Positions 2,756-48,331 of a stretch of DNA of 48,442 nucleotides are shown in pieces. The stretch lies in NCBI GenBank assembly GCA_051941275.1, contig JAVEBF010000025.1, positions 1 through 48,442 of the forward strand, written 5' to 3'. The notes beneath the pieces were generated by a model. It saw only the letters and a list, made by a program, of their open reading frames with translations, did no database searches and was not told where the DNA came from. Position 1 is the first letter of the stretch. Each line of letters opens with the position of its first letter. The DNA is from Dirinaria sp. TL-2023a. Taxonomy: Eukaryota. A program made the translations under genes and the position numbers.

Positions 2756-3076
2756 AGTAGAATTCAAATATCCAAACGCACACGATAGTTCCCTGTACCA
2801 TAGAGAAAAAAATGCAGTAAGCTGGTTTAGTCGCCCCATTGCTTGTGGATTTGAAACAAAAAGGCAGGGTGCTGGTTGTGTTATCAATGTGTAGAACCGG
2901 TCCCGCTTTTACAGTATGGCTCACCAATTTCCCACGGAGTTGTTACTCGAGAGATACAACCCGGAGCAAGAATTACGCCCGTCAGAATCAGCGCTACGGC
3001 TTGTTGGATCATGCGTAAAGTCCTAGAACAGAAGACGTGGACGGAACACAGATAGTAGACTCTCGGAAGCATGAGA

Positions 3077-3148
3077 TAGTATAGCAGTCAGTGTAAAAAG
3101 CAGTATGGGAACCAGTATGACAGGCAGTATGGCAGGCAGTACGGTAAT
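3077..3148. repeat. degenerate 12-bp tandem array (consensus ~CAGTATGACAGG), about 6 units
   Basis: Units read tagtatagcagt/cagtgtaaaaag/cagtatgggaac/cagtatgacagg/cagtatggcagg/cagtacggtaat. Confidence 0.7.
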
Positions 3149-3489: not shown

Positions 3490-5369
3490 ATGGGGTCAGA
3501 CATCAAATTTGATATCATTGTTCTCGGTGCGGGTGCGATATCGATGATCCTAGAACCAGATGAGTAGAAGAGCTCACACATGCGATACTTAGGAATTAGC
3601 GGCTTAGCATTTGCGAGGTTCTATCTTGACATCCATCCGAAATGCCTACTAGCTCTACTTGAAGGAGATTCTTGTGTCGGGGGCGTTTGGAGCTCCAGTG
3701 AGTCAGAATGTTTCACTTCTAGTAGCGCTAGAACGAGCATTTGATTAACTGGATATCTGTTGTAGCCCGCTTGTACGACCAGTTTTGGACACAGAGTGGT
3801 CGTCGAATGCTCGGGTTCTCTGATGTGCCGTTTGACATTCCTCCCAACGCCCCTTCGTTCTATGGATGTGTCGAAGCTAAATATGTGACCAAATACCTCG
3901 AAGACTACATCGATGATCATGTCTACTGTGGGAAATCTCTCCGCGAGAGGATATTTTTTGGACATCAGGTCGAGAAAGTAGAGAAGTTTCATGATACGTG
4001 GAAAGTCCGCACCAGAGATACTCGCGATGGAACCCGGAGTTTCAAGGCTTCCAAAATTGTTGTCGCCACTGGTTTAACCTCTTCACCTCAGATGCCCATC
4101 TTGCCTGGGGATCCCGAATTATTCAAGGGTCGTGTATACCATCACAAACGATTTGGCGAAGTATCGAGAACCTTGCTCCGAATGGAAGGTTGCCACAATG
4201 TGGTCGTTCTGGGCGCCGGAAAGTCCGCCACTGACATGGTCTACGAATCGATCAAGAGACGCAAGAATGTAAGCTGGATTATTCGAAGAGATGGAGAGGG
4301 CCCTGCACTATATTTTCCCGCCCAGGGTGGCGGCCGATACGAGAACTCTACAGAAGCCGGTGCAACAAGATGGAGCGCGCTTTTCAGTCCTTCCTCGTTC
4401 ATGCCAGAATCTTGGCTGTCAAGCCTGATCCATAGGACCAGTGTGGGCGTGAGCTACCTCACTAGTAGAATTGAAAAGGGTGATCAGAGCTGCCGCGACG
4501 CAGCAGCCTATCGGGATCGGGAAGGCGCTTTGCCAAATTTCCAAAATCTCGAGCCCACAACCTCGTAAGTGCTTCATAGATTGGTCCTCCGTAATACTCC
4601 TGACGTAAGTAGCGCATTTTGGTGCAACGGACCGCTAGGTCTCGCACAGCACGATGATTTTTGGAACGCCATTGCTCAGAATGTACGCGTTTGCCGCAAT
4701 GACATTAAAACGATTGAGGCTCATGATGTTGTTCTCGACGATGGGTCTAGGATCGAAGCAGATGTTCTGCTCTGTGGTACAGGATGGAATTACGACTATC
4801 CATTCTTTACAAAGGAGCAAGCTCAAACATTCGGGCTTCCTCAACATCCTCAGAACGACCTACCAGAACACACTGAGCTTTGGGACACACTTCTAAAGAA
4901 TGCGGATCGGCAAGTGCTTTCGAATTTCCCAATCCTCAAAAGTCCACCGCCACACAGAAGGTCGGAGGTCCCCACTACTACCAACAGGCTTTACAATGGC
5001 ATTGCGCCCTTGGGAGACACTTCGATAGTCTTCCTCGGCCGCTCGCATTTGTCAAACTCGTTTCGTACAGCTGAAGCGCAAGCCATCTGGGCCACAGCAT
5101 ATTTTGACGGGAACTTCAAATTGCCTCCTTTGGAAGAAGCACAGCGTCAGATAGCCTACATGAACGCTCTATCCAGGAGAAGGTATCCCTCTCGAGGTAT
5201 AGCTGGAGATTACCTCTTCTTTGAGTTGATCTGGTATACAGACAAGCTGTTGGCAGACGTTGGACTGAAATCACATAGAAAGGGATGGTGGACAGATTGG
5301 CTGGAGCCTTGTCTAGCCATTGATTTGAAGGATATGCCAGACGAATACCGGAAAAAGGCTTTATCCTGA
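3490..5369 (+). CDS. flavin-containing monooxygenase (class B FMO, PF00743-like), 4 exons
   Basis: ATG at 3490 gives MGSDIKFDIIVLGAG|ISGLAFA (FAD GxGxxG across intron 1), then VGGVWS, VVATG, FMO fingerprint FKGRVYHHKRF (FxGxxxHxxxF), NADPH site LGAGKSATD, and LLCGTGW. Introns have GT...CTGAC/CTAAC-like...AG. Stop TGA at 5367-5369. Confidence 0.92.
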
Positions 5370-5571: not shown

Positions 5572-7285
5572 CTATAATTTTAACTGGAATCTAGGCGAAG
5601 TCCGTATCTGCTCACCATACCTCATGAATAGCACCGCAATGGGTATGGCGCCTAAGGCAATAAAAGCCAAAACGCTGTTACCCCAGCCGTATCCTAAACG
5701 CTCATATAATGGATTTGCCCCTAGGGGAACGAGCGCCCCACATAAACTCCGGATAATGCCGCAGGCCCCGGTCGCGCTCGCTGCAAATACGGTGTAGGTA
5801 TCTACAAGATACATCTGAATCGGCAAATAGGTATATAGAATACCTACCGCAATAAATGCGCTACCAATGATAGGCACAATCCAATGGCAATGCTGTTGGA
5901 GTGACCACCCGTACCAGAGCAGCCCGGCGGGGAGTACCAGCGCGCCTACGAATATAGGCGGCAGGCGGTATTCGGGTTTCTGTTCTTCGTACTTCTTAGA
6001 CATCCTCTTGGTATACCAATCGGAAAAGTGGCCCAGTGTGATTTGGCAAATGACGAAGCCAGTCGTGAGGCCAAAGTAGGCCATGCCACTTTCACCAGGA
6101 CTCAGACCATATGTGTCCTGGAAAATGGTTCCGACTGTTGCGAAACAGATTTGGGCGTACGAATTCATAACTGCGGTATAAAAGCCTAGCAAAAGTATTA
6201 TAGGAGAGAGAAACAGTAGTCTTAATGGCCTCGTCCAAGCGAGGGTGAAGGCTCTGTTGTGGTCTAGTGCAGCTTGGGAGCGGTTTGTGTCTTCTTCGAT
6301 CGCTGATTTTCTCTTCGCTTTCAAAACAGGACCGTACGTTTCTCGGAAAACGAATACGGCAACCAGCGACGTAGTTCCCAGCTTTTCCAGTCAGAGAATC
6401 GGTCCAGCAGGTGAAATAAAAGTTCAACATACAGCGATCAGAGTCGACCAAAATGTCCATCTCCATGTCGTGTTTTCTACGATGTATCCACCCATGACGG
6501 GGCCTAGAGCTCATTAGATGTATGATCTGCGTATCAATGTAGCCATAGCTCTCTTACCTAGCGTGGGTGCCTACGGGTAATTAGCGTCTATTGACTCAAA
6601 AGGCTTATATGAAACCGGCTTTCGAACAAGGACAACAGAGTTAAAGCTCACCACGACCGGCCCGGCAGACATGATACTCAGGCTCAAGCCTCTTTTCTCG
6701 AACGGCATAATGTCTGCAACAATGGCTGGGCCTAAGAGTACGAAAGCTATACCCGCGAAACCCATAAGGGCCCTGAAAACGATGAATATTACTATGTTTT
6801 CACTGGCGCCACAAACGGCCAGCGCCACCATGAAGGTTACATAGGCCGGAAATAGCACATAACAACGTCCAAAAATTTCACTGGCAGGCGCGACGAGTAG
6901 CGGCCCGAGAACATATCCGAGGACGTAAATGGAGACGGTGAACGAGGCTAGGGCGGAGCTATGGGATTGTAAGGAGGACATTACGGAAGGCAGGGTGGGT
7001 TCAAAGGCTGTGGAGCAGAGTGCACTGATTTTGAGTACGAACATTAGTGGAGCAGCCCTTCAGCTTGTCCATAATTGGAGCACTTAAAAATATCAATACT
7101 GAGGAATAGAAGTGAAAGAAACAGGTTGCCTACGCTATTATGTTACTAACAACCAGCAGACACAAAATCATCCATTTGCGCCAAAGAGGCCAATTTTCAG
7201 GGTTGTGAGGGTCGTTCTCCCAGCTTTCAGTTGAATCATGCCCCTCTGTGTTCATAGGAGTAGGGGTGACACTGTCGTCAACCAT
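5572..7285 (-). CDS. MFS multidrug/drug:H+ antiporter (DHA1 family)
   Basis: Motifs WENDPHNPENWPLWRKW, SIYVLGYVLGPLLVAPASEIFGR, FRALMG, PEYRLP and LGYGWGNSVLAF, with about 12 hydrophobic segments over several exons. Includes a 13-nt micro-exon at 6558-6570 (APTLG). Confidence 0.93.
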
Positions 7286-7759: not shown

Positions 7760-8777
7760 TCAATACTGGCCCTTTTGACCAGTCTCTTGAACTAGTTCCG
7801 ACTTCTCATATCCTCGTTCGGCAAGATACCTTGAGAAGGCGTCCCAATTGACGCACTCCCGTTTCACTGGCGGTCTTGTGTTCATCTGATGCATTTCATT
7901 CCCGGACCAATAGTAGGAAAGCGGTGCAATATCAGGCTGACACACTATGGACGAACGAATAGACTCCAAGCAGTGCACTAAATCTTCTTAGGCCACTGAT
8001 AATCGAGCTTGAGCTTCTTCGTAAGGTGCCACTCACAGGTATGTTCATGATCATGTTTCCGTTGCGTTTCTGTCCAATCTGGGTAATAATGTTCCGCATA
8101 CAAGAGCTGCCGAATTCGTCTCTGTACGGCCCATGTCAGCGAGGGAAGAAGGATTGCTATTCTGAATGGCCTGCTTACTAGGCAATGCAGATTGTGGTGA
8201 ACGCTGAGAATTACTGCAAAGCTACCATCGTGAAGCGAAATGCTCTCGTTGATGTCCAGGCGCGCAGCTTCGTTGCGGTATAGTCGAACGCCATGTTGTC
8301 TGTTCGCTAGATATGACACTCTCTTAGCTTATTGAAGTCAGGGGCATTGTAATCCTACCATGTATGAGCTTATTCCACGCGCGCTCAGATTCGTCAGATG
8401 GTTTCCCCATGTACAAATCTGTGTGCAAAAGATTGGGAGGCGCAGTCTCCACACGATATTGAATTCCACTACGGAACGGCGCTATGTATGAAATTAGTGA
8501 TGAGATCAATTAGAAGTCGCCATCTCAGCAGACAGTATAATTGTTGGTCTCTAGATATACGTGAATCTGTTGGTGCAAAAACGAAACCTCCGGCAGAGGA
8601 AGACGACCACGCCTTGCTAAACAGCATCAGCGAAACAACGATACTGTAGATTGCCAACATCGCAGGCCAAAATCGCAGGCTGGACTTGATTAAGGTGACT
8701 AGACTGCTGCGACGAAAATCGCTTGAGTAACGTCTATCATCTTTCTCAGCGGAAGGCGGATTTTCAAAGTCGCCCAT
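7760..8777 (-). CDS. UstYa-like / DUF3328 (PF11807) oxidase, 5 exons
   Basis: N-terminal TM helix (FWPAMLAIYSIVVSLMLF), YMGKPSDESERAWNKL, first motif SVHHNLHCL, second motif H-T-L-H-C formed across the last intron, followed by LESIRSSIVCQPD and RECVNWD. This is the canonical DUF3328 layout. Confidence 0.93.
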
Positions 8778-9326
8778 ATTCGAGAGCTTGTTTGTCGTCG
8801 CTATCGCAAAACCGCAAAGTCTTGAGTTGAAGTATTGGAAAAAAGAAGAGCCAGCTTACGTCGCATATAATACACAATGAATGCTCGTGGCAAGTCCATT
8901 TCGAAGGGCCTGCACACAATTGAACCGGCAGTATCAACTCCGGTTATCCCCCCTTTCAGGATACTTGCATGAACTAGGTATTGGCTGATCTCTCGTCCTC
9001 CCTTACCGCCTAACGCGATGGAGAAGCGGCCGGATAAGGTAGGGAGCCCACCATTGGCTACCAAGCTGTCCTTTCGGATACATGTGAATGCCTGTGATGT
9101 CATCAGCTGAGTCTCGCGTAATCTTTGTAAGTGTTGCACAGCATTACGGTAACCTAGGCGGAGCCGACAGACATCTTGAGGCACATCCAGTACACAGATT
9201 CTCTACTTCTTAAACGCTAATTTTCCCACACACTTTTCCTTCATTAAATTTAACAGATCAGCCAAGAAACAGATTCTTCCGTCAAATCGATTCTTTATTT
9301 GACCAAGTCCACTACCACCATTCAAC

Positions 9327-9503
9327 ATGCGGTTCGAAGCGATGTTCGTCCTTGTTCTAGCGATAATCCTCACTGCGTCTGCTTCCCCACTCCACAACAG
9401 TAAGTTAGAGGTATATAATGAAACCGAAAGCAGACTCGGAGTAACGATTACAGGTGATGAATACGAGGAAGAAGGCACCGCGATCGAACGCATGCTAGCA
9501 TAG
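9327..9503 (+). CDS. small secreted peptide, candidate RiPP precursor (40 aa spliced, 58 aa unspliced)
   Basis: ATG in caacATG context encodes signal-like MRFEAMFVLVLAIILTASA-SP. An in-frame 54-nt intron at 9400-9453 (GTAAGT...TTACAG) gives spliced MRFEAMFVLVLAIILTASASPLHNSDEYEEEGTAIERMLA*. TAG at 9501-9503. Below the ORF-track length cut-off. Confidence 0.7.
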   Translation: MRFEAMFVLVLAIILTASASPLHNSKLEVYNETESRLGVTITGDEYEEEGTAIERMLA

Positions 9504-10227
9504 GAGTACGAAAAAAAATCTTTCAGGCAACCGCGCTAGTGTCGCCTTGTTGAACTCATGTGGGCGGATCTCCGGAGATAGTTGGCTTTCAACGCACTCT
9601 GTGCTTATTTGCATTCAGTATGCCGTGCTTTTCGCAAGAGGGGCTTGGTGGGATGGTGGCCGGTCTTTACCTTTGTTCGTGAGATAGCCGTTAGTTTCCG
9701 GAGGATTGAAGCATCAACCACCACTAGTCCATGCAGGAGATCGTGATCAGCGATTGCGATTTCATGAATACGACATTGCTAGACCTATTCGAACCATGAT
9801 CCACGTGTCTCGCTGTACTCCGTACCGCTGACAGCCCTGGTTGAAAGATAAGGGAGCGACGAGCACAGCTTAGCTTTGATTGACAAGCCCCAGATGATTG
9901 GTGACCCGAGATGACGCTGCAATCACAGGACCGTGGTAAGGTACGGGGATTATTATCAACGCGGGCGGGCCACTTACCGGGCGGCTCGGAGCGCAGCGCT
10001 AATGTACGAACTAGCATGCTCGCAGATAACGGCCCCCCAACTACATTTTCAGCTCCGCTTTTGCAGGTGGGTCTTTCGGTGGGGTTTTATGATCTGGGAC
10101 GCTACGTATGTTGGGTCGCCTACGCTACCTAGATATACCGCGCTTACTCCACGTCATAGGTCTTGGGTTCAAGAGTGCGTGGGTCACTATAACTGCCCAG
10201 CTGCTTCTGTATTCAACTCTTGTTGAC

Positions 10228-11665
10228 ATGGCCGATCTCCAGATTCACGCAAATCTCGCCATTGCAGCGGGAGCAACCTTTATACCAGTATGCACTGCTT
10301 GCGTTGGGCTGCGCATTTACGCTCGACGACTGCATCGAGTAAATTTGGGCGCAGATGACTGGCTGGTCGTTGCAGCCTTGGTCAGAAAAAGCCACGGCCT
10401 CCCAGTCGAACAGGTCACTAATGATCGGTGCACAGGCATTTGTCATTGCGATGGGAGTTACCCTTATTGCGGGTGAGTTTCAGCATCGTACTGTAGATTC
10501 TGTGCTGACCTCCCAATAGAAGTGGGTATTAGACGGCTAGGATACCCCGCAAATAAGACGCCAGGTGAACCAGACGCGAATATAGTACGGCCATCATTTC
10601 CAGTCTGTTCATAAAAACTAATCTAATGGAAGGCGTTCTGGCCGATGGAACTCTTGCAAGTTCCAGCATTAGGGCTAGTCAAGTCCAGCTTTATTCTGCT
10701 CTACCGACGTATCTTTACCAAACAAACAGCGTCAATTTTCAACAAGGTCACATGGATGATTTTGGCGGTTGTCATTATTTGGACAATTTCGTTTTTCTTT
10801 GCCCTATTGTTCATCTGCGGGACGGACTTTTCGGCCTATTGGACTAGCACAAAGGTGGAAAAAGCGCATTGTGTCAATACCAACAGCCTGCATAATGCAT
10901 TTGCAATGTCAGATTTTATCACCGATTTTGTGATTATTCTCCTTCCTCTACCCATGGTACGTCTCTTTACATATAACCTCCAGAATAGCTCAATTGACTT
11001 TTCTAGATATGGCGTTTGCATCTGACGACTCGGCGCAAGCTCGGTATTTGCGCCATCTTTGGTCTCGGTGCTCTGTGCGTTATCATCAGCTTTTGCAAAA
11101 AAGCCGATTCTAATATGTGGTAGCTCTGTCGGTGCCTCAATTGTTAGGATGGTGATATTCATACAAGCAACATCAGGTCTGCGCTCCAACTTCACGATAG
11201 TTTTGAGCCACTTTTCATAGGGATTACTGACGCTCTGGCAGTTCAATTTAATCCTAACACCGACTTTGAATGTGGGCTTCTGTGTTTCTACTCATTGAAC
11301 TCAAGCTAATTAGCCCCTCAGTTGTTTGCACGGCAGGTGTTTACTGGAGCATGATCGAGTCTGGCCTCGGACTCTGTGCGGCATGCCTCCCCGTTCATTA
11401 TGGCCTCACAAAATCCAAAGGTGTCCAGAGCATTGTTAGAAGCGTCCAATCCGCCATCTCATTACGCTCGCAAACATCTCCCAAACATACTGCCCAAAAG
11501 TCGAAGCTGTCACCTCAACATTCTCAGGAGTGTATCATTACTAGAGCAGAAGGGCCGGCAGCTGTCGATGACTCCATGCTCGAGTTAGGTCGCATGCCAC
11601 CAGAGCACGAAATTGTTGTCACGCAAAGTCTGGAACAGGCACGGGATCTGAGATCGCAATTGTAG
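10228..11665 (+). CDS. PTH11-like rhodopsin-domain integral membrane protein (no CFEM)
   Basis: VGLRIYARRLHRVNLGADDWLVVAAL, LGLVKSSFILLYRRIF, SDFITDFVIILLPLPM, ASIVRMV and YWSMIESGLGLCAACLP. Multiple GT-AG introns. Confidence 0.9.
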
Positions 11666-12844: not shown

Positions 12845-12891
12845 TGTATGGTTTTTCGCATGGTTCTTAACATGATATTTTCAACGATGGG

Positions 12892-12975
12892 CAGTATGAC
12901 ATGCGACATAGTAGATAGTATGATAGGCAGTATAAAAGACAACATGACAGAGAGTATAACAAGTACCATGACAGA
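12892..12975. repeat. degenerate 12-bp tandem array (consensus ~CAGTATGACAG[A/G]), about 7 units
   Basis: Units read cagtatgacatg/cgacatagtaga/tagtatgatagg/cagtataaaaga/caacatgacaga/gagtataacaag/taccatgacaga. Same consensus and orientation as the array at 3077. Confidence 0.65.
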
Positions 12976-14450: not shown

Positions 14451-16050
14451 CTAGTACAGTCTGTCATTATAGTCCACCATATCACTTGTTGTCCAAGAAA
14501 TCTCAGTCCTGACGTTAATTCCATATGGCGGCACTTCAGCAGCCCCTTCCTCGTCTTCGTTGTTTGTCACTCTTCCGCCACGTATTGTAGTACCGTGGCC
14601 AAGTGGGCGCAAATCTTCTGACGGATCGAGCTGAGTGAACGTTCCGTTGCTGCTTCTCCCCTTTGAGGATCCCCATCGGTTCATGGACGATACGTTGCCA
14701 CTGGAGCGGGGTGCATTTTTGATCGAGGGATGCTTAAAGATACCTTGGGTCATTACCGTGAAAAGTGGTCGGAGACTTGGAATGCACGCGCAGACGACAG
14801 CCATGCTAGGTTCCAATATGCACCATATACTCGGATCGACGTAGCTCCCTACGCCTTTTAGCCATGTCCAGCACAAGGTGTTAAGTCAGAAAGATGACTT
14901 ACATGTGAAGTCTATTCGCTCCAATCGGGAGCAGACGACGACCCAAATAATGCTTATCACAACGATACTATCAAGGTCAGTTACGAGATGAAACACTCGG
15001 CGCTTGTACATACAAGCCTGCCAGTGTAAACATGGCAAACACTACCATACGTTGCCTATAGGTAGTACGAAGGCGCCATACTAAGGGTATTGGCTATCAA
15101 TTGTTAGTGGTCGGATCATCTAGCACGAATAGAGCAACTGCATACGAGGAGGAATATTATAACGTTCTGCACGACGTTCACCGAGCCACTAGCAACATAA
15201 AACGCAATTACATCATAACAATGTCCGGTGGAGTGTCCTTCGATCTGATCCCAAGTATAATGAATTGGGAGGCTGCTGGCATTAGCTTCTGTTTTAGCAT
15301 TAATGAAGAGGTTGGGTACCATTGGAAAGTGGCAATGAGGGGAATTGACACCATGAGAACTACGGCGAGTAGAGATACCCCAAGAACAAGGTTCCGGAAA
15401 CGAGGAAGTGTGAAAATGCGATAGTAGAATAATAAGCTACTCGTTGTGGTTGTCTTGTCAGCTAGCTAATCATACAATCTAGGCCCACGAAAGGCAGAAG
15501 ATCGCTTACATTGGAAACTTTGCAAATTGATTTGCTATCGTGAATAGCAGCTGGAAGACATATAAAGTCATTAACCACCTCTTCCCTTTATGAAGTCGAT
15601 CTTCTAGACCCCAATACCATATGTGTCTTCCAAGTCCTTCGGAAACGGCTGCACGCATCGTAAGCAAGCATACTGAACAGGATCGATTCCAGAAAATTGA
15701 GTACATACCAATCAGCATTATCACGACGCATGCATTTGAGAATATCTGGGTTTATTAGACTTTGAGCAATTTAACGAAGAAGCCACGAAAAGACTTACCA
15801 AGGCTAAAATCGTAATGTAATCATCCCACTTCGATCCCTTTCATTAGCATTCGAGTAGCAGCATTTCCAAGCACGGGTTTATCCAGTTTCTTACCCAAAG
15901 TCCAGCTCTGGATAGCCTGCGAGAGAGCAGGCGGAGAACGACGAACGTGATTGGGATTATCAGGGTTGCAACGCCACTTCCAATAATACGGCCCCGCTGA
16001 TCTGCGTGGATATCGATGCCCGGTGGAGCAGCGTCGCTGAAGAAAGACAT
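14451..16050 (-). CDS. second PTH11-like rhodopsin-domain integral membrane protein
   Basis: PPGIDIHADQRGRIIGS...FVVLRLLSRRLSRAGLW|DDY, GLGRHIW, YVFQLLFTIANQFAK, IWCILEPSMAVVCACIPSLRPLF and C-terminal INVRTEISW. Many short introns. Confidence 0.9.
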
Positions 16051-34373: not shown

Positions 34374-35178
34374 ATGTTATCCCCCACACTCTTCTTTCCC
34401 CCTATAATCCTGCTCCTCGCATCCCTATCCCTATCCAGCGCCAGCGTGACCTGTCTCAAACCCAACCAAGCCGCCACAGCGACGTGGACCGATTCCGCGG
34501 GGAGGAAATGCTCGTGGAGCGGGACCGTGGGGTCGAATTTCGGGATTAATGGGGTTAATAATGGGAAGTGAGTTTGCCTTTATCTGTTGGTCTTGCCTGT
34601 TTGGTTGCAAGGGTGGCTATTGAGTCGAGTATTTGAGAATGGGAGTGGAGATGAGGATGGGTTGTGGGAATGGAAGACTGACGTACCTTGGGGGAGGGTG
34701 TAGTTATAGTTGTAATGGACGGTAGGGAAGCCAGGGATGGGGTTCTGAATTTACGATCGTGAAGTTGATTATGATGCAGATGTGGTGCAGCGTGCGACGG
34801 AGGTCCGTTCAAGGGTGGTTTGGGGAATGCTTAGTGAGTAATCTTACTTTTATTACCCCCTCCCTTAAAAGGTCCTTCATCATCACACAAATCGCGAGAC
34901 TAAAAGACATCAAAAATTTACCAGCACGCAAGACTGTTGGTCGCACGACATATGCTCGTGGTTCAACAACGCGCAGGGCGGATCCAAGTAAGAGTCTCTT
35001 CATTTGATTCTGTTGTGAAAGAGCAGAGTTCATATTGTCAACTCACAGAGACCCGAACTGTGGCAAAGCATACGATGCCGCGCAGGACGATTACCTTCTT
35101 GGTATCATCGATGGATGTGGAGCGGCGAACCCTACCGTTGCGCCCAAGCCGCCGACCAGCCTTCCGAGCTGCAGCTAG
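34374..35178 (+). CDS. small secreted cysteine-rich protein (10 Cys), 5 exons
   Basis: Exons 34374-34567, 34704-34721, 34780-34833, 34925-34987 and 35049-35178 splice in frame. Product: signal peptide, then SVTCLKPNQAATATWTDSAGRKCSWSGTVGSNFGINGVNNGNYSCNGRCGAACDGGPFKGGLGNAYTQDCWSHDICSWFNNAQGGSKDPNCGKAYDAAQDDYLLGIIDGCGAANPTVAPKPPTSLPSCS*. Confidence 0.85.
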
Positions 35179-46108: not shown

Positions 46109-48331
46109 ATGCATAAACTCATTGTTCTAGCGATCACATCAGTGGTCAGCTATTTGATGAGTGGTTTGATTGATAATTCGTCTCTCGCTTTGTGCGAGCA
46201 CCTCACGGGTCAGGTGCTTGCATATGGTACTCGCGCAAAAGCTTGCTTGGAGCTGGTATGTATCCATTTCTCGTGTCCTATCCCATGTGCTGGTCTGGTG
46301 GCTAAATAGGAATCGTCCGAACAGTTCGAAATCCTGCCTCTTTTCGAAAAGAAGAATGCAGCAGCGCCGGTCGATGAGCTCAGCTTTTTGACGCTTCCCA
46401 TGCCACCGCTCTCTGCAAAGGGAGATCTATCAAGTCTCACCGAGCAATGTAAGACTCTTGTGCTATTTTATCGAGGCTCAAGGTGACATTACACAGGGGA
46501 CAGCTTCTTTACCGCTCTTGTGTGGTTGTCATTTTTGACACCGTTTCTGGTTCTTGCTGTTGTTCTGACCAAGCAGCTGCGTCATGTTTCTCACCTCTCC
46601 AATGACGATGGAACTCAGGAGAGTGAGAATGACAACCCAATTGCCATCAATGAGCTCGAGCCAACTAAGATCGCCAAAAACGAGACGAGCAGCTACAAAG
46701 ACGAGGGAGTACAGACGGACGAATCTACGAGACCGGACTCTCACCTCTCCAATGACGATAGAACTCAGGAGAGTGAGGATGACAACCCATCTGCCATCAA
46801 TGAGCTCGAGCCAACTAAGTTTGCCAAAAAAGAGACGAGCAGCTACAAAGATGAGGGAGTACAGACGGACGAGTCTACGAAACCGGACGCCCACGACTAC
46901 AAAGACGCCGGTGTACAAACAGATCGGTCAGCAAGCCAAGACGACGTAGTGATACCACTAGTGACCGAGTACGCGCCGCCTCTGTCAAAGTCCGCCCAAT
47001 ATTACAAACGCAGTCGAGACCGTCACCGGAACGCGTTATGGGACATTCTGGACGAGCTCGAAGGGACTCCAAGGTTCAAGAAGGAGCTAGAGAGATGCAA
47101 GTCCGAGGCCGAAGAGAATAAGAAGTCTTATGCGAAACTCTACGACGTTGCTAAACGTGAAAAGGCGAGCGCGGAGAAATGGGCCTGCGTAGCTGAGGTC
47201 GATCTAGAGGATCAGAGGGCTTACGCGTTCGCGGAGAAGGATTCCCTTGAGCTTGAGTATGACAATCTTAAACAGGAGAAGGAGGACCTCGAGGAGCAGC
47301 TGGCCTCGTCTCAAGAGCAGCTTCGACAAGCATTGGAACGTATCGAAACCCTATCGAGCCATGAATTCTCACCAGTTGCTGGTGAAGATGAGAAAAACGA
47401 TGGCGATGGGACACAAGAAGCTGGCGAGCCGGAGCCTGCAACCTGCGAAAGCAAAGATCAGATACCCGAACCTCTTGCATCTGATGTCCCGCAGTCCCCC
47501 GAACCAGAGCGTCAACCATCCTCCGAAGCAATTACAGGACCCATCGAACATTCGGCAGATGAACTCTCGAAGACTTCCGAACAAGATTCAATCGCATCAG
47601 AGCATCAATCATTCTTCGAGACAATTACAGAATCTCTCGAAGATTCGACAGATCAACTCTCGAAGGTTTTCGAACAAGATTCAATCGCACCAGAGCATCA
47701 ATCATGCTCCGAGGCAAATACAGGACCTCTCGAAGATCCGGCGGATGGACTCTCGGAGGCTTCCGGACAAGGTCTGATCATGGACTCTCCAAAAGAAGCA
47801 AACGAAAATGAGGTAGACGAAGCTTTAGAAGGATCCGAACCGGACGAGATCATCGACTCTCCAGCAGTAAAGCCGACCAAGACTGAGTCTCGTCTACAAC
47901 TCGCTTTCCTCTTTTTCGTCCATGCTTATTTTTTGCCGACCTCGTTCCTCCTCCTATTCGCTTTCCTGTTCTTCTTCATTCGTGCATGGCAGCAGCGCAA
48001 AGAAGAAGAGATAAAGACGAAAGAAACAGATGAAGTTTCAAAAGAGCTTAAACCGGATAAGATCACCGGCTCTTCAGAAAGTGAGACGAGCGAGACTCCC
48101 TCTCGTCTTCTTACTGCTTTCATCCTTCTCGTCCATCTTTACTTCGTCCCGACGTTCTACCTTCTGCTGTTCGCTTTCCTGTTCCTCTTCTTTGTGGCAC
48201 GACAACAGCGCAAGGAAGAAGAGAGAAAGAGGAAAGAAGCAGAGAAAGCTGAATTGGAAGATCTGATCCATCGATTCGGGCGATTATCTATCCGGAACAA
48301 GAAGAGTCCGTCGAGGAAGAGTCGAAAATGA
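46109..48331 (+). CDS. repeat-rich acidic membrane-anchored coiled-coil protein, 3 exons
   Basis: ATG at 46109 (MHKLIVLAITSVVSYL). Introns 46256-46309 (GTATGT..CTAAATAG) and 46449-46496 (GTAAGA..CACAG) join in frame to ORF 46520-48331. Contains a TM segment, a coiled coil (ELEYDNLKQEKEDLEEQLASSQEQLRQALERIE) and two duplicated C-terminal hydrophobic segments. Confidence 0.75.
46589..46888. repeat. 150-bp near-identical tandem duplication (50 aa x 2)
   Basis: tctcacctctccaatgacgat...gtacagacggacga at 46589 and 46739. Confidence 0.95.
47521..47772. repeat. 93-bp (31-aa) tandem repeat, about 2.7 copies
   Basis: Units start at 47521, 47614 and 47707 (SEAITGPIEHSADELSKTSEQDSIASEHQSF and variants). 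Confidence 0.9.
47888..48230. repeat. duplicated hydrophobic/TM module at 213-bp spacing
   Basis: SRLQLAFLFFVHAYFLPTSFLLLFAFLFFFIRAWQQRKEEE (47888) and SRLLTAFILLVHLYFVPTFYLLLFAFLFLFFVARQQRKEEE (48101). Confidence 0.9.

Follow-up and report, generated by a model that had tools for sequence, protein, structure and literature searches.

The 48,442-nucleotide contig JAVEBF010000025.1 of Dirinaria sp. TL-2023a, analysed here over its full length (the window), carries a small secreted-peptide gene that lies head-to-head with an intact UstYa/DUF3328 oxidase gene and in tandem with an intact Pth11-like receptor gene. We propose, with a probability of roughly 0.45, that the peptide gene encodes a single-unit, dikaritin-type precursor free of Kex2 repeats, whose product the DUF3328 enzyme matures and the adjacent receptor senses, the three genes forming a UstYa - peptide - Pth11-like receptor module. 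The peptide is probably a substrate of UstYa, and a signal-bearing acidic peptide expressed from the shared interval would be the natural one. Linkage is the basis for regarding it as the ligand of the neighbouring receptor, a role to which we assign slightly less than even odds. The receptor linkage is the most surprising part of the locus. The features concerned are as follows.

3732..5369 (+), flavin-dependent monooxygenase (FMO), main exons
5575..7243 (-), MFS transporter directly downstream of UstYa; start not mapped
7760..8777 (-), intact UstYa/DUF3328 gene of 5 exons and 256 aa, with one N-terminal TM segment, two HxxHC motifs (151, 183) and PF11807 matches
9200..9326 (+), pyrimidine-rich 5' flank and putative promoter, GC 0.36, A at -3, within the 549-bp divergent interval common to UstYa
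9327..9503 (+), small secreted-peptide gene, 2 exons (9327-9399, 9454-9503), 40 aa spliced and 58 aa unspliced; homologue P0007
9327..9383 (+), predicted signal peptide of 19 aa, A-x-A then S-P, from a hydropathy heuristic and likeness to P0007 residues 1-25
9400..9453 (+), putative phase-1 intron of 54 nt, in frame and stop-free, with GTAAGT donor, CAG acceptor and weak GTAAC branch site
9454..9503 (+), exon 2, conserved Y-x-E-E ... (I/V)-E-R-x-L-x-stop; candidate recognition and core region
10228..11665 (+), intact Pth11-like 7TM receptor gene (PF20684, no CFEM) of 8 exons and 357 aa, 725 bp after the peptide stop, in tandem

In the proposed mechanism, the intron would be spliced and signal peptidase would free a 21-aa acidic peptide into the ER, where membrane-anchored UstYa, with Cu and O2, would oxidise or cross-link it. 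The modified site may most simply be the phenol of the Tyr, which is conserved in both available sequences (window peptide and P0007), as in the reaction of AprY; the C-terminal (I/V)ER-x-L unit is an equally good candidate. Kex2 repeat processing would be unnecessary; the N-terminal X-P dipeptide or the one Arg that is conserved may serve for trimming. At the C-terminus, the unit of such a precursor ends at the stop codon, as does the last unit of the repeat precursors in this genome, so that no Kex2 cleavage is required there. The neighbouring receptor would then detect the secreted product, which would act as a signal of self or kin.

The peptide gene and its homologue

The peptide gene runs from an ATG at 9327 to a stop at 9501-9503, a 58-aa open frame whose spliced product of 40 aa includes a mature part of 21 aa that is acidic and has one Tyr. 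An ER signal peptide is predicted by hydropathy and an A-x-A heuristic and is conserved in P0007; in the heuristic signal scan of the window, this N-terminus had the top hydrophobicity score (3.71) among the matches listed. A previous sequence-only reading had described the signal peptide, the 54-nt GTAAGT...CAG intron and the one-Tyr acidic mature part, and had put the gene about 550 bp from the DUF3328 start codon on the opposite strand. These points agree with ours, in which splicing is predicted and the UstYa start at 8777 (-) is 550 nt from the peptide ATG. A stricter signature (A at -3, an h-region, A/S-x-P and a phase-1 donor at nt 58-82), defined after these genes had been seen, occurs once in the 48-kb window, at 9327, five times in 114 kb around other UstYa loci and once in 217 kb of other DNA. 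It was found in 0/3000 shuffles of 8778-10227.

Searched with phmmer against 1.84 billion proteins, the 58-aa frame had two matches in total. P0007, an unnamed 58-aa protein from an ENA metagenome, matches with E 6.2e-4 and 48% identity over residues 1-57. The second, P0006, is a 159-aa helical-repeat protein that matched on acidic composition and was rejected as a homologue. The score of the signal region (residues 1-25) against P0007 was reached by 0/5000 shuffles, as was that of exon 2, which aligns without gaps. Leaving out the intron-coded stretch, the two mature peptides are both 21 aa long and align ungapped with 9/21 identical residues, the Tyr 13 residues from the stop and the stop at the same place; the sole indel downstream of the signal falls in the intron. 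At the protein level, P0007 shows S-K at the expected read-through of the phase-1 donor and I-G at the acceptor. Its exon-coded part has no dibasic site, and one RK occurs in its intron-coded stretch.

The exact 58-aa sequence was absent from the searched protein collection, and own-genome searches found no paralogue of the peptide gene. A word-index search with an alignment of the two peptides as query gave only P0007 among 3 candidates. A metagenome DNA scan for orthologous loci yielded 1 locus of 359 candidates (47% over 34 aa), a prokaryote scan matched 1/59 candidates, irrelevantly, and a viral scan 0/44. ESM Atlas matches, with scores of at most 0.82, gave no useful information on either peptide. 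We consider it very probable that this is a real translated gene.

The mature peptide contains no dibasic site and no repeats, where dikaritins and KEPs have three or more cores, and no KR-repeat ORF was found anywhere in the window. Since it lacks the repeats and Kex2 sites, it is not counted as a dikaritin member, dikaritin-like as it is. KEPs are defined by at least three repeats between dibasic sites in PMC7329392, a definition that excludes a precursor without repeats; as had been anticipated, KEP mining would miss this gene. The suggestion of a single-core, Kex2-independent precursor thus holds insofar as the gene is real, conserved, non-repetitive, free of dibasic sites and beside an intact UstYa, with the Tyr no more than a candidate core: it is kept in P0007, but it is lacking from the unit of the C921 repeat precursor and from the mature C432 peptide (both described below).

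It is very improbable that the gene is a chance ORF or the decayed stump of a repeat (KEP) precursor. A short exon-2 look-alike does follow the stop (9504-9540), and the related locus C921 has a true KR-repeat precursor. As a decayed second repeat, however, the look-alike was rejected as not significant (its score was reached by 245/2000 shuffles and 241/1608 windows), both flanking genes are intact, and P0007, with its same length and stop, largely refutes this reading.

Upstream of the gene, a GTAAGT donor at 9127 and a branch site, pyrimidine tract and CAG before 9260 (9127-9260, +) could delimit a 5'-UTR intron. CGGATAA, tried as a common promoter motif, showed no enrichment (10 in 114 kb versus 10 in 143 kb).

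Predicted splicing of the intron

The 9400-9453 intron is probably removed by splicing, as judged from its sequence. Its donor and acceptor fit the consensus, its GC is 0.39 compared with 0.52 in both exons of the gene, and its 54 nt resemble the 47-79 nt of introns in the neighbouring genes. A phase-1 intron is present at nt 61-79 in seven other peptide genes beside UstYa in this genome and at nt 73 in the window gene. An in-frame, stop-free intron is expected about 12% of the time; one of seven first introns in the paralogous peptide genes is also open, and six carry stops or frameshifts. The 58-aa retained-intron isoform that had been put forward is therefore not needed, although the second Tyr and the N-glycosylation sequon (N-E-T) that the intron-coded stretch would bring are present in the sequence. 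Because the signal region and exon 2 beat all shuffles and the intron stretch is only weakly similar, we take the 40-aa form as the main product.

Intron retention is nonetheless a possible event, given a weak branch site and a residual similarity to P0007. The GTAAC branch site lies 14 nt before the acceptor and is poorer than the CTRA/TTRA sites found in 11/11 introns of the two flanking genes, and the similarity of the intron-coded stretch to P0007, with the splice-fixed K and G left out, was reached by 53/5000 shuffles. A different gene model, in which the product is the 58-aa intron-retained form or the protein is extended by splicing of a second intron whose GC donor is at 9490, would draw on these two observations and on the intron frame being open in both homologues; we think it improbable. 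The same-phase introns of paralogous genes carry stops or frameshifts (6/7), intron GC is low, and the G-V-T common to P0007 and the window peptide overlies the branch site. An open intron was also a precondition for finding P0007 at all. As for the second intron, the context at 9490 is weaker than the AG|GCAAGT donors at C24 and C250, and both homologues stop at the same codon.

The UstYa oxidase and its neighbours

The peptide gene and UstYa diverge from an interval of 549 bp. The UstYa protein is 54-61% identical to seven orthologues (from Clarireedia, Botrytis, Sclerotinia, Monilinia and one Logan contig). Its association with the transporter is found in one other species: the B. fragariae model P0018 is a UstYa orthologue fused to an MFS protein that is 51% identical to that of the window over 488 columns. 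No PKS or NRPS domain was found among the 149 window ORFs scanned, and the eight PF00264 (tyrosinase) matches in the genome are on five contigs, none of them a UstYa contig. The KEP table of PMC7329392, in which three genomes were confirmed (B. cinerea B05.10, S. borealis and S. sclerotiorum), listed no accession with the prefixes around six UstYa orthologues. A search for PDB sequence relatives of the UstYa clade found none, and the Botrytis and Sclerotinia locus tags tried were named in no paper found.

The Pth11-like receptor and its linkage in other fungi

The sequence-only reading had overlooked the Pth11-like gene that starts 725 bp downstream of the peptide stop. Its product matches PF20684 with E 4.6e-20 and is 61-74% identical to six orthologues; the largest exon, used as query, retrieved 24 proteins at 65-78% among 302 candidates. 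A structural model of the orthologue P0037 (pTM 0.70) has seven long helices, and 50/50 of the PDB matches listed are GPCRs, these fold matches being weak (best E 5e-3, none at E<=0.001 among the 50). A second Pth11-like gene, distant in sequence from the first, is present at 14454-15465 (-).

Receptor orthologue P0042 and peptide homologue P0007 are both from ENA contigs of 18,642, and we infer from this equal size and source only that they share one contig. On the same grounds, receptor orthologue P0034 and UstYa orthologue P0001, both with a longest Logan contig of 5,483, appear to lie together. In C. jacksonii, the receptor (ACMFMG_007942) and UstYa (ACMFMG_007944) are separated by one gene, and in a second record their accessions are consecutive. 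Some 90-220 locus tags, or a change of scaffold, separate the UstYa orthologues from the receptor orthologues in Botrytis, Sclerotinia, Stromatinia and Monilinia, the distance being about 100 genes in the first two genera; in B. fragariae, UstYa and MFS adjoin and the receptor is 100 accessions away. Since the trio arrangement recurs in other fungi, it may encode a peptide signal that has so far escaped notice, together with the enzyme that matures it and the receptor that senses it.

Peptide genes at other UstYa loci of the genome

The 33 PF11807 matches in this genome collapse to 16 contigs, and the DNA around all 16 was read; the peptide gene models, made in this analysis, are unverified. 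Twelve of the 16 UstYa loci have a peptide gene, and none was found at C1732, C1443, C611 and C1207, which are short contigs or contig ends. Precursors with at least three dibasic-delimited repeats are present at five loci (C402, C207, C497, C921 and C2329), short intermediate forms at two (C24 and C250), and short non-repeat peptides without dibasic sites at five (C25, which is the window locus, C1744, C432, C119 and C30). The genes of the last type outside the window, and the repeat precursor at C921, are located as follows.

C1744, L046:149 (+), short non-repeat signal-peptide gene beside UstYa
C432, L045:6309 (+), short non-repeat signal-peptide gene beside UstYa
C119, L043:3778 (+), short non-repeat signal-peptide gene beside UstYa
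C30, L044:5008 (-), short non-repeat signal-peptide gene beside UstYa
C921, L034:7540-7993 (-), repeat precursor with eight Tyr-free units ending in Phe; start off contig

The C1744 gene has its intron at the same offset (73) as the window gene, followed by Y-E-E, and the C432 and C119 models have alternative 3' splice options. Besides C25/P0007, 2 of 28 pairs of short peptides from different loci scored at a level reached by 41/2000 shuffles, which is not significant over 28 tests. These peptides thus have a common architecture and, at the sequence level, no demonstrable homology. The C921 precursor is convergent with its UstYa, which in turn diverges from a same-group receptor gene.

Tyr-containing repeat or near-repeat precursors lie beside UstYa at C402 (L033:6172, -), C207 (L035:2660, -), C497 (L038:4540, +), C2329 (L027:1182, -), C24 (L040:5594, -) and C250 (L042:6324, +), and these loci are candidates for ordinary dikaritin clusters. 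Two further small peptide genes are 1.4-2.4 kb from a Pth11-like gene. One, at C811 (L083:2334-2546, +), is a signal-peptide ORF 1.4 kb from a same-group receptor on an 11.8-kb contig with no UstYa; the other, at C24 (L086:5864, +), is a small secreted-peptide gene beside a Pth11-like gene, 8.8 kb from UstYa.

Receptor enrichment at UstYa loci and phylogeny

A PF20684 receptor occurs within 6 kb at 8/16 UstYa loci and at 16/103 control loci (13/80 P450 loci and 3/23 FAD_binding_4 loci), a difference with Fisher p 0.004 among the 150 receptor matches listed. With distances chosen by the analyst and paralogous loci not being independent, p was 0.04 at 3 kb and 0.006 at 10 kb, the 3-kb enrichment being weak against P450 alone (p 0.07). 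On contigs numbered up to 1000, the receptor is at 8/11 UstYa loci versus 12/73 controls (p 3e-4). When the window is left out, 7/15 UstYa loci (p 0.01), or 7/10 on the larger contigs (p 9e-4), retain a receptor. These counts used the 150 listed of 156 PF20684 matches found (150/274 candidates scored); for the P450 controls, 92/207 candidates were scored and 96 matches were merged to 86, of which the 6 on UstYa contigs were dropped to leave 80.

Five of the eight closest paralogues of the window receptor sit at UstYa loci. The receptor tree was built from 43 rows and 107 columns; the C250, C402 and C24a receptors and the second receptor of the window failed the coverage filter and were left out. 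A branch with 96/90 support joins the window receptor, 12 orthologues and nine other genes of this genome. Within this branch, five of the ten own receptors have a UstYa at <=4 kb (C25, C921, C432, C119 and C30), and the other five have none in the DNA read, two of them being near contig ends. On the other side of the tree, 2/21 own receptors have a UstYa within 10 kb. The receptors of C921, C30, C432 and C119 form one 95/90 group, and the UstYa proteins of C921, C30 (two), C432, C119 and C1744 form one 100/99 clade. The window UstYa is outside this clade and groups with its own orthologues. The two trees are thus partially congruent, the UstYa tree being built from two short motif blocks with one row in which a block was mis-picked.

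These patterns bear on an alternative in which UstYa acts on the peptide, a single-core substrate, and the product is exported for defence or to act on a host, and the Pth11-like protein is a co-clustered cue sensor or accessory membrane protein that does not bind the peptide. Such a role would fit the B. fragariae arrangement, in which UstYa and MFS are adjacent and the receptor is 100 accessions away, the finding of Pth11-like genes in many kinds of cluster, and the mostly toxic nature of known dikaritins (PMC12048977). We regard it as unlikely but a serious contender, because the receptor enrichment at UstYa loci exceeds that at other secondary-metabolism genes, one receptor group recurs at UstYa loci with a topology that matches a UstYa clade, and P0007 appears to share a contig with a receptor orthologue.

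The peptide could instead be an unmodified secreted ligand of the receptor, with UstYa, MFS and FMO acting on a small-molecule or non-ribosomal substrate, as ApnU and CctR do. Consistent with this are the C811 ORF 1.4 kb from a same-group receptor with no UstYa on its 11.8-kb contig, the P0007 contig, for which no UstYa has been shown, and the different clade of the window UstYa from the other receptor-linked ones. The absence of PKS and NRPS domains among the 149 ORFs scanned, the head-to-head orientation of the peptide gene and UstYa, and the presence of a peptide gene at 12/16 UstYa loci make this reading improbable.

More broadly, a whole class of such modules, each sufficient in itself for signalling, may exist in filamentous ascomycetes: a DUF3328 copper oxidase would mature a very small secreted peptide, usually of one unit, and Pth11-like GPCRs of a linked clade would perceive the product. 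We offer this generalization tentatively, at about one chance in three. Against the module stand the single peptide homologue found, the separation of receptor and UstYa in Botrytis, Sclerotinia, Stromatinia and Monilinia, and the position of the window UstYa outside the receptor-linked clade. The five own receptors of the 96/90 branch with no UstYa in the DNA read, the weak enrichment at 3 kb, the occurrence of Pth11-like genes near other biosynthetic genes (13/80 P450 loci here) and the wider substrate range of DUF3328 enzymes also count against it.

Relation to known systems

Among characterized clusters, that of asperipin-2a (precursor AprA, single DUF3328 enzyme AprY, transporter and reductase; PMC12048977) resembles the window in having a single gene of the UstYa type with a transporter beside it, in lacking a tyrosinase, and in its Tyr-containing precursor with a signal peptide. 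The window differs in that its precursor has one unit and no dibasic site and its next gene is a Pth11-like receptor. A DUF3328 enzyme makes the Tyr-O to C-beta ether of asperipin-2a (PMC12186524). The ustiloxin, phomopsin, victorin and epichloecyclin dikaritins and KEPs are alike in their ER-targeted acidic precursor adjoining DUF3328 with an MFS nearby, whereas they have multiple Kex2-delimited repeats and the window peptide has none. Ustiloxin and phomopsin also need a tyrosinase, which is on no UstYa contig here. The literature passages on dikaritin and KEP systems contained no mention of a receptor gene.

DUF3328 enzymes, known for cyclising fungal peptides, are described as lumenal, dimeric, dicopper and O2-dependent in PMC12435403, and also act on non-ribosomal and polyketide substrates (PMC12048977, PMC12435403). 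KEP neighbourhoods held 31.8% of DUF3328 counts in one survey (PMC7329392). PMC12048977 notes as a puzzle those DUF3328 clusters in which no repeat precursor is found, and its authors suggest a remote or single-core precursor for the lichen RiPP clans R1 and R2. No precursor was identified there, whereas the window locus provides a concrete candidate type and, with named gene pairs, the puzzle becomes testable. The combination of signal, phase-1 intron and 20-50 aa acidic tail is a simple signature for finding candidate precursors. With regard to processing, peptides between the signal and a single Arg were detected from a yeast-expressed KEP (PMC9769878).

The receptor resembles Pth11-like class XIV GPCRs (PF20684) in its Pfam match and GPCR-like 7TM fold and differs in having no CFEM and a candidate self-made peptide ligand encoded next door. 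The alpha-factor/Ste2 system likewise pairs a 7TM receptor with a secreted peptide that has an X-P start (X-P being removed by Ste13). Unlike that system, the window pairs a receptor of another class with a repeat-free peptide and has an oxidase in the cluster. Genes for pheromones and for their receptors are not usually linked.

Pth11-like receptors are the largest GPCR family of filamentous ascomycetes, with the ligands of studied members unknown (PMC13308352), and 4.2% of their genes belong to clusters, for the most part of PKS or NRPS-like type (PMC12842992). For T. reesei, a putative RiPP cluster includes one gene of the PTH11 type (PMC7099791), and KEP peptides or cluster products have been speculated to be GPCR ligands (PMC6339444, PMC12842992). 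We found no paper on a natural single-core DUF3328 precursor or on DUF3328-Pth11 linkage in a search that covered little subscription chemistry, and prior art may exist; both kinds of term co-occur in PMC9731116, PMC12196386 and PMC12409109. If such modules exist as a class, the largest orphan receptor family of these fungi would gain its first endogenously made ligands, many DUF3328 genes that have no repeat precursor would be accounted for, and some dikaritins would have to be viewed as hormones instead of toxins. The five receptor-peptide-oxidase loci (C25, C432, C119, C30 and C921) would allow cognate and non-cognate pairs to be crossed.

Other observations in the window

A 614-aa intron-free acidic ORF at 46487-48331 (+) has 150-bp and 93-bp tandem repeats and hydrophobic segments, with no convincing family match. 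Other signal-peptide starts are at 34374 (+) and 23181 (+), one of them followed by a Cys-containing sequence without a Pfam match. Two related degenerate arrays with a 12/24-bp period, at 3074-3141 and about 12890-12975, flank the FMO-MFS-UstYa-peptide-receptor block in the same orientation; their similarity is marginal and of low complexity (local score 44, compared with 41 for the best of 364 other windows).
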